Part shown: in pieces, positions 8,600 through 13,264 of the stretch
Numbering within the stretch: position 1 is the stretch's first letter
Layout: the number at the start of each line of letters is the position of its first letter
IMG/VR virus record: IMGVR_UViG_3300032243_000488
Span: 1 to 30,396 of that record
Source: a virus
Taxonomy: Duplodnaviria; Caudoviricetes
Reading direction: 5' to 3' (one strand)
DNA: 30,396 nucleotides
Notes under the pieces: model-generated
The model's input: only the letters and a program-made list of their open reading frames with translations
What the model was told of the DNA's origin: nothing
Databases searched by the model: none
Program-made: the position numbers and the translations under genes

Positions 8600-8804
8600 G
8601 ACTTAGTGGTGTTACTGGTTTAATGAAAAACTCATCCATATTATCAAATGAGTCGTTTATTCTTAATTCTTTTGATTTATTTGATATATATTCTTCCATT
8701 TCTTGTTCTGTTGGAATATTCAATTCTCTTTGAGGAATATATATTCCTTTCTTCTTATCCCTTTCCATCTTTCTTCTCCATCTTCTTTGATCTGTACTAC
8801 TCAT
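8589..8804 (-). CDS. Hypothetical protein with a basic N-terminus
   Basis: 71-aa ORF overlapping both neighbours in the operon. Confidence 0.65.
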   Translation of the reverse strand: MSSTDQRRWRRKMERDKKKGIYIPQRELNIPTEQEMEEYISNKSKELRINDSFDNMDEFFIKPVTPLSHGM

Positions 8805-9312
8805 TGTTATATCTTTTAAATGTATTATATTTTACCTGTGTTCTTGTTTCTTTTACATATCTTCCTATTGATGGTAATGATATTGATGTATCCACCGCTA
8901 CTTTCTTTAGACTACCGAGAACCATATACTTCTCAAATATTACCTTGTTAAACCAATTTAAATCTCCAAATTCTTCTTCCATTATCTCCATAAACTTATG
9001 TGAATCCATCTCACTCTCTTGATTCATTACCTGTATTGCATCATTTAATTCAACTGTGGTGATATTATCCTTCTTATGTTTCTTATAAAACGGTGATGAA
9101 GGGTAACACCAATTAACCATTAACATCTTTATAATATAATACTTTATACTATTATCGTCAAGTTGTAATTTTATTTCTTTCTTATCATATAATTGAAGTA
9201 TTACCTCATGTAGTAATTCATATGACCAATCATCATTTTTTGTGTATTTCTTTGCTATTGATAATAGAAAATAATAGTTTTTGGTTATATAATTATTTAT
9301 TTCAATCTTCAT
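8797..9312 (-). CDS. ECF/sigma-70-like RNA polymerase sigma factor
   Basis: Region-2-like Y..LLSIAKKYT...SYELLHEVILQL; region-4 HTH SLKKVAVDTSISLPSIGRYVK. Confidence 0.7.
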   Translation of the reverse strand: MKIEINNYITKNYYFLLSIAKKYTKNDDWSYELLHEVILQLYDKKEIKLQLDDNSIKYYIIKMLMVNWCYPSSPFYKKHKKDNITTVELNDAIQVMNQESEMDSHKFMEIMEEEFGDLNWFNKVIFEKYMVLGSLKKVAVDTSISLPSIGRYVKETRTQVKYNTFKRYNNE

Positions 9313-9565
9313 TTAATAATTTTCTGCAATCTAAAAGAACTTCACATACTTCATAATGTTCCAATTGTTCATTAGATATTAAACTACTTTCCAATACATC
9401 TTCAAGGAAAGAAATTCTATTTATGGTGGGATCCAATTCTCTATCTATTTCTAATAGTAATAAATCTATCAATCTATTACATACTGCTTTCTTTTCTTTA
9501 TATGTATATTGATTATAATTCTTTGGTATATCAACCCAACCTAAATCAACTTGCTCTCTTTTCAT
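9302..9565 (-). CDS. Hypothetical protein with a UVR-like C-terminal helix pair (EQLEHYEVC)
   Basis: 87-aa ORF overlapping neighbours; the UVR resemblance is weak. Confidence 0.6.
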   Translation of the reverse strand: MKREQVDLGWVDIPKNYNQYTYKEKKAVCNRLIDLLLLEIDRELDPTINRISFLEDVLESSLISNEQLEHYEVCEVLLDCRKLLNED

Positions 9566-10271
9566 TTCTATATTTACTTACTACTGTTCTTATTAGTGTA
9601 TGGGAACATTTATAAACTTCTGCTATATCAAAATATGTATTACCTATTTCTAGTAGTCTAACAATATCATTAACATTATTATATATACCTGTCTTTAATT
9701 TTCTTCCTCCACCTGCTGATGATTTTCTTTTTGGTTTATCTCTTGGTATTATATTGATAAATACTCCATTTTCTTTTATACCAGGTTTATTCCATATACT
9801 GGTACCTTCATCAAATATCCAACCAAACGCCTTCATAACAGAAAATACTTGTTCCTTTTGATAAATATCAGCGTATATATTTGGTTTTGCTGGTACTCTT
9901 TCACTTCCTCCTCTTTCTTTATTACGTTCTTCTGTACTTTTCTTATAATGTTTATTATAACAAGTTTTACATTTTTTAATTAGATTTTTACTACCATTAG
10001 GATAAAATTTATCCAATGGTTTTATTTCTTTACATACAAAACATTCTTTATACCCTAATTGTAATTCTAAGACCACTGGTTGGATTATCTCCTTCGGTTG
10101 AGGTATATCTATCACCAGTTCCTTTTTAACCTTATTTCGTTCCTTCCAATCTCTTCCTTGCTTTCTAAAACATTCTATACAATACTTCTTTCTATAAACT
10201 TTGTTGGGTTGTTTATCTAATGAATATTCTTCAATTGGTTTTTCTATATTACATTTTGTACATACCGGCAT
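9546..10271 (-). CDS. Tandem zinc-finger plus C-terminal HTH DNA-binding protein, likely start ATG 10271
   Basis: CTKC..EKP..EY...CIEC and CFVC..IKPL..FY...CKTC; HTH GNTYFDIAEVYKCSHTLIRTVV; TATTTATA ends 3 nt before ATG 10271. Confidence 0.75.
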   Translation of the reverse strand: MPVCTKCNIEKPIEEYSLDKQPNKVYRKKYCIECFRKQGRDWKERNKVKKELVIDIPQPKEIIQPVVLELQLGYKECFVCKEIKPLDKFYPNGSKNLIKKCKTCYNKHYKKSTEERNKERGGSERVPAKPNIYADIYQKEQVFSVMKAFGWIFDEGTSIWNKPGIKENGVFINIIPRDKPKRKSSAGGGRKLKTGIYNNVNDIVRLLEIGNTYFDIAEVYKCSHTLIRTVVSKYRNEKRAS

Positions 10272-10292: not shown

Positions 10293-10378
10293 AAACAAAA
10301 GACCCAGCACTTGGAAATGGGAATAACCTTTGGTGCTGGATCAATGAGCGAAAATTGTTTTAGAACTTTCTATATTAT
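10293..10378 (-). ncRNA. Candidate small RNA ending in a large-loop terminator-like hairpin
   Basis: TATTTATA at 10386-10379; stem GAUCCAGCAC/GUGCUGGGUC (10342-10333 / 10310-10301) followed by UUUUGUUU. Confidence 0.45.
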
Positions 10379-10388
10379 TATAAATAAA

Positions 10389-10595
10389 CTAATCTGAATC
10401 TTCAAGAGATAAAAACTCTTTTACTTTATTGATATTCTTTCCATACTGGTTCAGTATTATATTATCACCGGAACTTCTTTCTGTTGAGGATAGTTTCTCA
10501 ATCATAGATATATATTCATTCCTGCTTGTTTGCGGTAATGAATAAAATTCTTTCATTGTTAATTCTTTATCCCTCCAATTCCAACCTTTTTTCAT
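10389..10595 (-). CDS. Hypothetical protein
   Basis: 68-aa ORF with a TATTTATA motif at 10610-10617 upstream. Confidence 0.7.
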   Translation of the reverse strand: MKKGWNWRDKELTMKEFYSLPQTSRNEYISMIEKLSSTERSSGDNIILNQYGKNINKVKEFLSLEDSD

Positions 10596-10647
10596 AATAG
10601 TACTTTTTATATAAATATATATAATTTTATTGATTATAAAAAATCAT

Positions 10648-10669
10648 CCAGTATATACTAGTATACTGG
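10648..10669. repeat. Inverted repeat CCAGTATA-N6-TATACTGG beside a T-rich tract
   Basis: Read directly; lies in the divergent intergenic region. Confidence 0.8.
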
Positions 10670-10821
10670 TGCTCTTTTCTTTTTATTTATTTATTTTGTT
10701 TTGTTTTGTTATGCTAGGGCCGGTAATGCTGGGTAAAAAAATGTGTACAAGATCCAACAGGAGTGCTTACCTGAAGTTTATAGTATCTTTTAACAAATAC
10801 TAGGTTTTTTAACCCTACCTT

Positions 10822-10854
10822 TATAAATATAAACAAATATACCCAAAAGACAAA
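10822..10854 (-). promoter_or_regulatory. Leftward Bacteroidota-type promoter TTTG-N19-TATATTTA
   Basis: Minus strand reads TTTG tcttttgggtatatttgtt TATATTTATA; the spacer also contains a perfect TATATTTG. Confidence 0.65.
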
Positions 10855-10907
10855 ATAAATGTGGAAAAGTATTTTACCTCCAATTTTTTTTTATAAATTA
10901 AAGTATT

Positions 10908-10917
10908 TATATTTATA
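10908..10917 (+). promoter_or_regulatory. Rightward TATATTTATA promoter-like motif for the early block
   Basis: Ends 17 nt upstream of ATG 10935; divergent from the 10822 promoter. Confidence 0.55.
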
Positions 10918-10934
10918 CAAACAAAACAATTTAT

Positions 10935-11375
10935 ATGGCAACAGTTTATCACAACACAACCCATCTTGAGGGTAAAGAACTACAACAAAGAATTGACAAT
11001 GCTGAAGGTCAATTGGAACAGATTCAAGAACTATTCAATATCTATAAATCTATGACAAGATGGGAAACCAGACGAAAGTTCATTGAACATTTTGGTCCAA
11101 TAGATGAAGCACAACCTGGTGCAAGGATTGATGCATTGGTTGATAAAGGTATTATATATAAGTCCACCGAAAAGTGGAGGGAAGAAAAAGGTGCATTTAA
11201 TTTTGTGTATAAATTATATCCAACTGATGGTACTATTCCTGAGGATTATAATAATAAAGTTCCAAAAATTATTGTACCTTTACAGTTCAACGAAGATGGT
11301 ACAGTTGACCTTGAAGCAACATCAGATACATTTATTATTAAATTAAACAAACAAGACAAAAAATATTCACTTTAA
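10935..11375 (+). CDS. Winged-helix DNA-binding protein
   Basis: YHNTT lead-in, ELF...MT..E, ARI.ALVDKG.I.K...G....Y.L wHTH pattern; first gene of the plus-strand block. Confidence 0.65.
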   Translation: MATVYHNTTHLEGKELQQRIDNAEGQLEQIQELFNIYKSMTRWETRRKFIEHFGPIDEAQPGARIDALVDKGIIYKSTEKWREEKGAFNFVYKLYPTDGTIPEDYNNKVPKIIVPLQFNEDGTVDLEATSDTFIIKLNKQDKKYSL

Positions 11376-11387
11376 AATAAAAACAAA

Positions 11388-11615
11388 ATGGGAAACTGTC
11401 CTGAATTTTACTCAAGAGAAGTTAGCATCATGCAACAATCTCAATCAAAACTTGCATTAGAGTTTTTAACACATCATGGAATCATTCCAACACCAATGGA
11501 ACTTTGGTCTGTAACAGAAGTGTTCGTTCAATGTTGTCTTCATAATCAAACTGATGATTTGAAGAAACGATTAAAGGATTTAAATGATTGGATTATTAAA
11601 CGTAAAAATAAATAA
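11388..11615 (+). CDS. Hypothetical protein
   Basis: 75-aa ORF with an A-rich leader, in operon. Confidence 0.75.
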   Translation: MGNCPEFYSREVSIMQQSQSKLALEFLTHHGIIPTPMELWSVTEVFVQCCLHNQTDDLKKRLKDLNDWIIKRKNK

Positions 11616-11616
11616 T

Positions 11617-11793
11617 ATGGACGAAGTAATATTAAAAAAGAAAGAGGTAAAGGCTCTTATTGGTTGTGTTAATTCTTATATAAGAATATGTAATAACTCT
11701 TCACCTGAACCACCAGAACTTACTAAGATTAAAGAAGATTTTATTAAACAATTGAAAAATGTTATTAAAAAAATAGAAAAAATAAATAAATAA
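11617..11793 (+). CDS. Hypothetical protein, likely start ATG 11617
   Basis: TAAtATG coupling to the previous stop. Confidence 0.65.
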   Translation: MDEVILKKKEVKALIGCVNSYIRICNNSSPEPPELTKIKEDFIKQLKNVIKKIEKINK

Positions 11794-11794
11794 T

Positions 11795-12007
11795 ATGAAA
11801 CTTAAAACTTACAAATTAGAAAGAGATAATCGTAAAATAATTATACAACAAATAGAATGGTTAAAAACTGAAACACAAGAAGAATTTGATTGTGATTATA
11901 TCAAGGAGTTATTTCCTATGAATAAAAAGGAATTGATTAAAGTATGGGTTGAATTAGTTATTAAACTAAATTACCCTGAATTAGATTGGATACAAATATA
12001 TTATTAA
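11795..12007 (+). CDS. Hypothetical protein
   Basis: TAAtATG coupling; 70 aa. Confidence 0.7.
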   Translation: MKLKTYKLERDNRKIIIQQIEWLKTETQEEFDCDYIKELFPMNKKELIKVWVELVIKLNYPELDWIQIYY

Positions 12008-12011
12008 ATAT

Positions 12012-12044
12012 TTTGACTTTTGGTAAAAGTTAGTTATATTTATA
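12012..12044 (+). promoter_or_regulatory. Promoter TTTG-N19-TATATTTA(TA)
   Basis: TTTG 12012-12015 and TATATTTA 12035-12042; spacing matches the Bacteroidota -33/-7 consensus. Confidence 0.65.
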
Positions 12045-12045
12045 T

Positions 12046-12190
12046 AGAAGGGGTGAGGATTTATTTATTATAGATTGCCATCTATGTAAGGTTAAGTTTT
12101 GTTATACAACCACCCCTTCTTTTACAACGTCTATTTTTCCATAATAAATAGGATTTTCATACTCACCCCGTTTCTACGGGGTGTTTTAAT
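12046..12190 (+). ncRNA. Candidate structured small RNA (about 145 nt)
   Basis: Lies between a promoter and a terminator; stems 12046-55/12111-20, 12070-75/12080-85, 12131-36/12146-51 and 12164-71/12176-83. Confidence 0.6.
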
Positions 12191-12192
12191 TT
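12164..12192 (+). terminator. Intrinsic terminator CACCCCGT-ttct-ACGGGGTG-TTTTAATTT
   Basis: 8-bp GC-rich stem followed by a T tract. Confidence 0.8.
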
Positions 12193-12198
12193 ACTGAA

Positions 12199-12222
12199 TC
12201 TGTACAGAATGTTGTCTGGCAA
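12199..12222. repeat. 24-bp direct repeat, copy 1 (palindromic core TCTGTACAGA)
   Basis: 22/24 identical to 12624..12647. Confidence 0.85.
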
Positions 12223-12227
12223 AAATA

Positions 12228-12247
12228 TGTGGATAAAATGTTAATAA
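12228..12247. promoter_or_regulatory. Tandem DnaA boxes TGTGGATAA and TGTTAATAA
   Basis: Perfect TTATCCACA reverse complement plus a 1-mismatch box 2 bp away. Confidence 0.55.
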
Positions 12248-12252
12248 CTTTA

Positions 12253-12283
12253 TTTGTACATTCAATATAAGGTTGTACATTCG
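12253..12283 (+). promoter_or_regulatory. Promoter TTTG-N19-TACATTCG
   Basis: One mismatch to TAnnTTTG with correct spacing; upstream of ATG 12324. Confidence 0.6.
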
Positions 12284-12323
12284 TTGTTCATTAATCGGGA
12301 TAGTATCCCACAAAACAAAAGTT

Positions 12324-12569
12324 ATGATAGATAAACAACAACAAGTGACCATTAATCTAAATGAGTATGTCACTTACGAACAAAAGGTAGAAGTAGTGGA
12401 AGGTCTTATGGAACTGTTAGATTTAGAATATGACAGGGAAGACCAAATCATTACATTGAAACGTGATAATGAGGATATACTTCAGTTGGCAATAGAGAAG
12501 TACGAACGTCTAAAGGCCATAAAAATGGCGGATAAGACATTTGATAATCTGTTCCCGTACAAAAAATAG
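12324..12569 (+). CDS. Hypothetical acidic coiled-coil protein, likely start ATG 12324
   Basis: A-rich leader caaaacaaaagttATG; has its own promoter and terminator. Confidence 0.75.
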   Translation: MIDKQQQVTINLNEYVTYEQKVEVVEGLMELLDLEYDREDQIITLKRDNEDILQLAIEKYERLKAIKMADKTFDNLFPYKK

Positions 12570-12620: not shown

Positions 12621-12623
12621 GGT

Positions 12624-12647
12624 TCTGTACAGAATGTTGTTTGACAA
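12624..12647. repeat. 24-bp direct repeat, copy 2
   Basis: tctgtacagaatgttgtttgacaa. Confidence 0.85.
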
Positions 12648-12681
12648 TGCCAGACAATATTGGTTTTAAGACGATTTAAGA

Positions 12682-12901: not shown

Positions 12902-13264
12902 TTATTTTAAACTTAATTGGTATCTTGTATTAGATATTAATTCAGATATATTATCTATTTGATTTTGAACCCATGATTCTTGACAAGGAATAGTTTTTCT
13001 ATTTGTTTCCACAAAATCGTACAAACCCTTAAAATAGATGGCAGAACCACCTTCTTTCCAATCAACAGGATTAGATAAAGTATAAGAAGTGATACGAGGA
13101 GCATATCCTTGAATTGACTCCACCAACCCATCAATACGTTCAAGAATTTCTTCGTAATAATTTTGTAATGCTTTATGTTCACTAAACGATGTTGTTTGAT
13201 GATGCCATGTTATAGCTTGTTGTTTGCTCTGATGTAGAGTTGAGATAAATTGATTTATTTCCAT
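12902..13264 (-). CDS. Ferritin/Dps-like four-helix protein (DUF5856-like), likely start ATG 13264
   Basis: WHHQTTSFSEHKAL..YY.......D.LVE..QG and NQID.I..LI..T.Y.L. Confidence 0.8.
   Translation of the reverse strand: MEINQFISTLHQSKQQAITWHHQTTSFSEHKALQNYYEEILERIDGLVESIQGYAPRITSYTLSNPVDWKEGGSAIYFKGLYDFVETNRKTIPCQESWVQNQIDNISELISNTRYQLSLK

Follow-up and report, generated by a model that had tools for sequence, protein, structure and literature searches.

IS10 RNA-OUT is a cis-encoded, fully complementary single stem-loop of ~70 nt; its loop initiates pairing at the mRNA 5′ end and hides the start. The sar RNA of P22 overlaps its target, and Bacteroidota ribosomes initiate without Shine-Dalgarno pairing. 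In the available sections of a 2025 review of phage sRNAs (PMC12197685), the c4 antisense RNA of P1/P7 is a small phage RNA with a loop-displayed pairing sequence, which blocks a regulatory phage mRNA of the same locus through partial complementarity, and sar and OOP (lambda) are antisense RNAs of 68-77 nt that damp an early regulator post-transcriptionally, OOP being cis-encoded and sar being tabulated as trans. The same sections make no mention of Bacteroid- or Flavobacter-. In the available part of PMC10994844, MasB of Bacteroides thetaiotaomicron is a chromosomal base-pairing RNA that binds ~40 nt downstream of the start.

The window analysed here, the whole stretch of 30,396 nt, represents an entire phage genome (30.4 kb) with direct repeats at its termini, and at 12 kb it contains an element that shares some features with each of these RNAs (Table 1). 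As with the c4 RNA, the element would be a small phage RNA with a loop-displayed sequence, which by computation is complementary to a phage mRNA initiation region and is predicted to block a regulatory mRNA of the same locus through partial complementarity. It differs from the c4 RNA in that its family has no Rfam match, has its own promoter and has its predicted target genes upstream on the same strand; the seed mirrors AUGGC and an A-rich leader, not a Shine-Dalgarno region, and the predicted targets encode a winged-helix and a helical protein, neither of which is recognised as an antirepressor by family matches. The family core of ~78 nt with one closing stem is similar in size to sar and OOP, but unlike OOP it does not overlap its target and the predicted pairing is short and imperfect. 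No target lies opposite it with full complementarity, and no conserved ORF was found on the opposite strand. Like MasB, it would act by base-pairing in a phylum that initiates without Shine-Dalgarno sites, although it is phage-borne and AUG-centred, and unlike RNA-OUT its large AU-rich loop is predicted to pair in trans at two short sites. The best reading of these comparisons is a c4/sar-like trans antisense RNA that would mask the AUG and an A-rich leader instead of a Shine-Dalgarno site. With slightly better than even confidence, we propose that this conserved phage small RNA blocks translation of the neighbouring winged-helix and 75-aa genes by pairing at AUGGC and the leader.

Two other classes were considered and rejected. 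For a type I antitoxin, the neighbours look soluble and none of the best four window matches was a long duplex with a gene for a small hydrophobic protein; for a 6S RNA, Y RNA or tRNA-like RNA, there was no Rfam or ARAGORN match, and the core has a single closing stem. The literature titles and abstract openings that we searched contained no description of the family. Six of its motifs were not found in the searched part of the supplements of Fremin et al. 2023 (PMC10690425), and the family may be among the 10,000 candidates of that study.

The RNA element and its family

Table 1. Positions of the RNA element, its predicted target genes and a second hairpin unit in the window
Feature	Positions	Strand	Basis or remark
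Second promoter-plus-hairpin unit (10.3-kb RNA)	10301-10342	minus	gap between 10389-10595 and 9546-10271
Predicted target region: promoter box (10908-10915), A-rich leader, ATGGCAA start	10908-10941	+	duplexes
146-aa gene, cluster c25, predicted winged helix-turn-helix; predicted target in the window	10935-11375	+	model
75-aa three-helix gene, cluster c4	11388-11615	+	confident model; predicted target in many relatives
Promoter-like site: TTTG (12012-15), 19 nt, TATATTTA (12035-42)	12012-12042	+	sequence
Closing stem, 5′ arm, G-rich	12046-12055	+	pair probabilities; covariation in relatives
Apical hairpin with UUGCCAU (12075-12081), the conserved seed, mirror of AUGGCAA	12070-12085	+	
Predicted second pairing site GUUUUGUU	12096-12103	+	mirror of 10920-10927; duplex prediction
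Closing stem, 3′ arm, C-rich, then U run	12111-12120	+	pair probabilities; covariation
Variable tail with weak hairpin (12130-12152); contains the unconserved second and third CAU motifs	12121-12163	+	
Intrinsic-terminator-like hairpin (12164-12183) and U run	12164-12187	+	

The promoter-like site is a variant of the Bacteroidota −33/−7 consensus TTTG/TANNTTTG, and the transcription start of the RNA is predicted at 12047-12048. Matches to a sigma-70 promoter were not enriched in the region (60 sites versus 53.6 in shuffles). An earlier sequence-only reading of this DNA had proposed a promoter, an RNA with four stems and no ATG-initiated ORF, and a terminator. The promoter is present but is better read as the Bacteroidota TTTG/TATATTTA type than as sigma-70, and the terminator hairpin with its T run was found as described. 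Of the stems, the closing and apical ones covary and the terminator recurs, whereas the middle helix lies outside the consensus of 16 relatives. The RNA folds better than its shuffles (z −3.85, reached by 0/200), and the pair probabilities leave the seed bases 12076-79 unpaired. The 3′ arm of the closing stem with its U run possibly forms the 3′ end of a short form of about 78 nt.

No ORF of at least 50 codons was found inside the RNA on the + strand, and its only AUG (12084) runs straight into UAA, in agreement with the earlier claim. The small frames on either strand of the window copy were limited to this AUG-UAA, a TTG frame of 31 codons and short frames on the opposite strand. The frame opposite the seed, which begins with the mirrored ATG, has no conserved length, stopping within 7 codons in some loops and continuing in others. 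A 9-codon ATG frame lies on the minus strand in the region 12153-12182, and the second and third CAU motifs are its in-frame ATG codons. ARAGORN found no tRNA or tmRNA in the window, and Rfam gave no match for the RNA in the window at E up to 1; the earlier view of a structured non-coding RNA is supported. Rfam searches of the loci of 10 relatives gave two sub-threshold matches, both outside the RNA, and annotated phage records gave only 13 short matches, which is chance level.

Family loci were gathered by the portal protein, by sequence patterns and by the 75-aa protein; loose pattern scans yielded, among the matches listed, mostly unrelated sequences. Three features defined a match of the detector: the box TANNTTTR, a stem rich in G, with four G in its 5′ arm, and a loop rich in A and U; a seed was not required. 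This seed-free detector placed the RNA downstream of the 75-aa gene, on the same strand, in 53 of 65 distinct contexts, indicating a conserved synteny. Among the 12 misses, 8 had <750 nt of sequence, 3 were recovered by a covariance model, and L072/L074 had the promoter only. The covariance model found one copy per phage in 22/67 sources, no second copy in the window, and no copy in 400 kb (20 stretches) of a Flavobacterium genome. The TATATTTA box was seen in 51/52 members, the detector having required TANNTTTR; TTTG lay 17-21 nt upstream of the box in 37/52, and the stem began 3-7 nt (median 5 nt) after the box in 51/52. Judged by its sequence features, the element is real and is part of a conserved family of phage RNAs that Rfam does not match.

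The loop of the family is AU-rich and 38-55 nt long, and it carries a single conserved seed. Among 47 distinct loops, 44 have GCCAU, one GCCCAU, one GCCAAU and one (L035) none. Eight of the 47 had entered solely through patterns containing the seed, and GCCAU was present in 36 of the 39 loops found without a seed requirement. The seed of L078 (14226-14299) has one extra C and that of L064 (6120-6196) lacks the U. L035 (13543-13623, minus strand) keeps the stem and has another C-rich motif in its loop, for which no match was found in its own genome outside the RNA. Downstream of the closing stem, at least 4 T occur within 6 nt in 43/49 members, and in 37/49, the window copy included, a terminator-like hairpin follows 15-57 nt after the stem with no ORF between. 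In 8 of the 12 members without this second terminator, an ATG lies within 10 nt after the stem. In L026, L058, L146, L348, L363, L364, L366 and L374, stem and U run lead directly to an ATG instead of a tail and terminator, and in several of them the ATG opens a small hydrophobic ORF; the RNA of this subgroup may serve as a leader as well. All members have a 5′ arm rich in G (330/511 bases) and a 3′ arm rich in C, which is partly built in because the detector required four G. The two arms often resemble a Shine-Dalgarno/anti-Shine-Dalgarno pair.

Seven close relatives with near-identical loops were paired in 105/105 cells, with three pairs of the closing stem changed on both sides; 0/500 shuffles reached this and slid controls gave 42-55%, although kinship can beat shuffles in such a test and the helix was drawn from the same sequences. 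Double changes were seen at 7 of the 9 consensus pairs in the subfamily to which the window copy belongs (16 members), and the consensus fold held only the closing stem. The interior G-U pairs of the stem alternate with G-C or A-U, and therefore + strand RNA is favoured. In the apical stem, the C of CAU has a G six bases upstream and a C three bases downstream that pair with each other, and this closing G-C pair covaries (12/3/4/25, p 3e-5, kinship uncorrected). The seed is unpaired at 73-88% on average across loops.

The sequence-only reading had pointed to three CAU motifs as anti-start-codon elements. They are present at 12075-81, 12134-45 and 12154-61, but three or more CAU occurred in 5663 of 10,000 dinucleotide shuffles and in 3022 of 6050 genome windows of 147 nt, which is chance level. 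The second (TTCCAT) and third (TTTCAT) motifs recur in only 2/49 and 6/49 tails of family members, and the closest relative, L010 (87% identical), has neither. CAU per loop was 1.6 with the seed included versus 0.72 expected, and CAU per tail was 0.89 versus 0.91. The extra CAU are not enriched, and what the relatives keep is the covarying stem and the single GCCAU.

Own-phage complementarity at two upstream starts

The predicted targets lie 0.4-1.1 kb upstream of the RNA on the same strand. The model of the winged-helix product (cluster c25) has a pLDDT of 79, and its top Foldseek rows were nearly all winged-helix regulators of the ROK, PadR and MarR types, with a best E of 3e-3 and none under 1e-3; its Atlas similarity of 0.92 was to viral clusters without a name. 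The fold of the 75-aa product (cluster c4) matched only uncharacterised phage proteins in the viral library, its best PDB match (Z 6.4) was within the background for helical bundles, and its Atlas matches were <0.9. Neither product matched an antirepressor family. In 13 of 15 homologues of the winged-helix gene, the start has a promoter box no more than 45 nt away.

When 18 loops were scanned freely for duplexes within their own loci, the starts of the two upstream genes appeared in some phages and nothing consistent elsewhere. We then compared the pairing of own loops with that of permuted loops for 32 gene clusters with at least 8 members in 29 phages, i.e. 35 sets minus four near-duplicates, one seedless set and one missed by the detector, with start codons called by script. 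For the AUG-anchored pairing length, only the 75-aa gene (z 3.8, p 4e-4) and the winged-helix gene (z 3.7, 0/5000) survived correction for 32 tests. The energy score was led by the capsid cluster c6 (z 3.2), the winged-helix gene (3.0), the 75-aa gene (3.0) and the small-terminase-like cluster c16 (2.6). Rows for the best of all genes were left out, as they were inflated by an ORF of G009 that overlaps the RNA.

When the better of the two genes was taken in 51 pairs, z was 4.2 and 4.6. After thinning to one member per kin cluster, the median z was 3.9/3.1 for 30 clusters, 3.1/2.3 for 20 (p 0.003 and 0.014), 2.9/1.7 for 15 and 2.7/1.6 for 13, where the energy score gave p 0.06 and the downstream part p 0.25. 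The 17 held-out pairs, with near-duplicates among them, gave z 2.1 and 2.3 (p 0.026 and 0.015). The own-phage signal, which survives thinning and the held-out set at a modest level, owes most to the sequence 5′ of the AUG. Against permuted controls, the loop's 3′ half matched the leader of the own winged-helix gene (z 3.4-3.6; 2.1-2.3 when thinned); one of two wrong-orientation controls reached z 2.2 unthinned and neither did after thinning. The same test was weak for the 75-aa gene.

An ATGGC start was found in 27/51 of the 75-aa genes and 17/27 of the winged-helix genes, versus Met-Ala starts in 50/607 other conserved genes and 3/92 accessory genes. When only ATGGC starts were compared, 23 starts of the two genes matched their own loop (z 4.7, 3.7 and 3.5), whereas 61 other ATGGC starts of the same phages did not (z −0.6, −0.7 and 0.9). 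Broad action on all Met-Ala genes of the own phage was rejected because these 61 starts gave no own-phage signal. Clear examples are L014 and L366, each with 13 contiguous pairs, and L065 and L261, each with 12.

In the window, the duplex with the winged-helix start has 7 contiguous pairs at the seed and 8 at the very start of the leader, 10920-10927 being the first bases of the predicted leader. Its energy is −14.7 to −18 kcal/mol, or about −5 once opening costs are counted, and it ranks second of 36 own starts, below a doubtful opposite-strand ORF. The 75-aa gene begins here with ATGGGA and pairs weakly.

Genome context and a second hairpin unit

The minus strand of the phage encodes terminase, portal, protease, tape-measure and tail genes, and small genes form a block on the plus strand at 10935-12569. 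The 33 ORFs scanned for family matches included no integrase. The promoter type, the weak ECF sigma match of 8797-9312 and a few Atlas taxa suggest a host in the Bacteroidota. The portal protein gave no prophage or host link in 185,579 genomes. The ECF-type sigma-like gene at 8797-9312 (minus), upstream of the terminase genes, is kept in 20/35 phage sets; it matches a Bacteroidetes ECF sigma model weakly, below the cut-off (E 1.7e-5), and its product is a candidate reader of the TATATTTA box. The family box ends in A where the Bacteroidota consensus has G, and therefore the phage's own sigma-like protein may read it. A TATTTATA box also lies upstream of several virion genes.

Several other features were observed in the neighbourhood. 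A DUF5856/Dps-like ('starvation-inducible') gene at 12902-13264 (minus) ends the portal operon and occurs in 10/35 phage sets. A repeat of ~25 nt follows each of two terminator-like hairpins, at 12197-12227 and 12622-12652; a loop motif common to the two hairpins is inverted in one relative to the other. L010 also has both copies, and the repeats could mark sites where the variable block of small genes recombines or receives insertions. At 10812-10857 (minus), a 46-nt inverted copy of the promoter region of the RNA drives a long leader-like stretch within 10600-10857, which contains a block conserved in G010 (L340), L066, L053, L065 and L075 and repeated CCAGCA/CCAGTA units, two in the window and five in L066 and L340. 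These are possibly origin iterons, an operator array or another RNA.

Relatives have the hairpin of the 10.3-kb RNA in the gap between the same pair of genes, usually preceded by a TATATTT box. Of its 23 large loops, 16 have CCA, 13 CCAU, and the others none. In the window, 9 nt at the beginning of the 75-aa gene match its mirror. Its target test gave no signal for the 75-aa or winged-helix gene and no consistent family-wide own target; cluster c33 reached z 3.1 in 7 loci with near-duplicates, and the loop of L338 was anchored at the wrong CCA. We regard it as a separate, weaker candidate. The sequence-only reading had combined the two RNAs into a code for five N-terminal dipeptides, which does not hold, as only the anti Met-Ala seed is conserved and the anti Met-Ser motif of the 10.3-kb RNA is lost in close relatives. 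A bolder and rather unlikely idea is a two-RNA anti-start-codon system, in which the GCCAU RNA and the 10.3-kb YCCAU RNA (against AUGGA/G) would cover AUGG starts, silence the first regulators of the own phage and of co-infecting relatives, and drive an arms race over second codons. If true, this would be an RNA immunity suited to ribosomes that ignore Shine-Dalgarno sites.

Predicted mode of action and alternative explanations

The sequences show conservation, synteny, stem covariation, one seed and own-phage complementarity at the two starts; we infer the transcription of the RNA, its pairing, the repression and its purpose. The TATATTTA box would drive transcription, and with a start at base 1 of the stem the 5′ end would be shielded; the paired ends would stabilise the RNA. 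The apical UGCCA loop would make the first contact with AUGGC, and pairing would then zip across the A-rich leader, where Bacteroidota ribosomes read adenines instead of a Shine-Dalgarno site. In the available parts of PMC6847099, transcription of F. johnsoniae starts 4-5 nt after the −7 box with the consensus TTTG/TANNTTTG, which also appears in the available part of PMC9723704, and initiation is favoured by leader adenines at −3, −6 and further upstream (PMC6847099). Because the RNA and the cassette share the promoter box and a stable RNA would accumulate, the accumulated RNA may shut the two-gene cassette by delayed negative feedback, either as timing or in response to phage copy number. 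The position of the two genes and the RNA suggests that they are early. The own-phage complementarity makes it likely that the AUG region is masked and not a Shine-Dalgarno site, as the sequence-only reading had supposed, and favours the second of its two options, the timing of phage genes, over host shut-off as the main job, since the loop flanks track two phage genes and not the 61 other ATGGC starts.

It is also conceivable, though unlikely, that the RNA mainly hits the same two genes of co-infecting related phages, an RNA-based exclusion that can coexist with self-regulation. Phages whose starts left ATGGC would then be escapers still carrying the weapon, and indeed neither gene has ATGGC in 6/27 phages with both in view (12/51 overall), all of which keep GCCAU. 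Foreign (permuted) loops still pair with the two starts, with a mean of 7.4 contiguous pairs, and the heteroimmunity of P1/P7 c4 provides a precedent in the available sections of PMC12197685. However, own loops pair better (mean 8.8), which is the opposite of what is expected for a weapon aimed solely at others, and the ORFs scanned include no integrase.

We give a still smaller chance to a broad silencer of Met-Ala mRNAs of the host (and phage), or of one host mRNA such as rpoA. The seed is short and invariant, Met-Ala starts pair better with the window loop (mean 15.2 versus 11.9), and in a sample of 1093 starts from three stand-in Bacteroidota genomes, from which the true host may differ, 14 of the 85 ATGGC starts scored at least as well as the own target, as did 64 starts in all. 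The own match was in the top 2% of this sample for 12/44 loops (median 12.7%) and no better than the host median for about ten. Against this, the flanks of the loop follow the two phage genes, and only 7.8% of the sampled host starts, those with ATGGC, would be affected. Side effects on host Met-Ala mRNAs are conceivable. As for rpoA, many loops have a mirror that would encode M-A-I, with which Bacteroidota rpoA starts, but rpoA starts paired no better than unrelated matches to the same pattern (13.2 versus 14.3), the base before the AUG fitted in 2/44 loops, and the conserved A behind M-A-I is accounted for by the apical stem. The 43-44 rpoA matches among 120 were a product of the chosen pattern and no evidence, and rpoA was rejected as a host target.

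It is improbable that the loop is a protein-binding decoy whose conserved unit is CCA, not CAU, resembling a tRNA end or a motif of a host RNA-binding or defence protein. CCA is present in 38 of the 39 unbiased loops, including that of L064 without the U, and the loops of the 10.3-kb RNA hold CCA more often than CCAU. CCA-binding enzymes, however, generally require a free 3′ end, and a decoy leaves unexplained both the own-phage flank match and the enrichment of ATGGC at the two genes.

A cis-acting element, either a leader or attenuator with the stem and U run as terminator, or a DNA hairpin at an origin or packaging site, is very improbable. It would agree with the U run behind the stem, with the ATG-after-stem subgroup and with the invariable order of G-rich and C-rich arms. 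On the other hand, most members, including the window copy, have a terminator without an intervening ORF, the G-U pairs speak against a DNA hairpin, and the target match would be unaccounted for.

The full version of the earlier proposal, in which several anti-start motifs jointly cover common N-terminal dipeptides, is scarcely tenable: all three motifs are largely unpaired in the window copy, but their number is at chance, two of them are rare in the tails, and extra CAU are enriched in neither loops nor tails.

The RNA is probably not the global host silencer first proposed. The preferred reading, a phage RNA that would block the starts of two neighbouring genes, makes the family a testable case of how phage RNAs could block initiation in Bacteroidota, and the family offers a covarying scaffold, a start-codon seed, a second site in the A-rich leader and dozens of co-changing natural RNA-target pairs. 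If the reading is true, it would also provide a ready scaffold for gene knock-down in Flavobacterium or Bacteroides.
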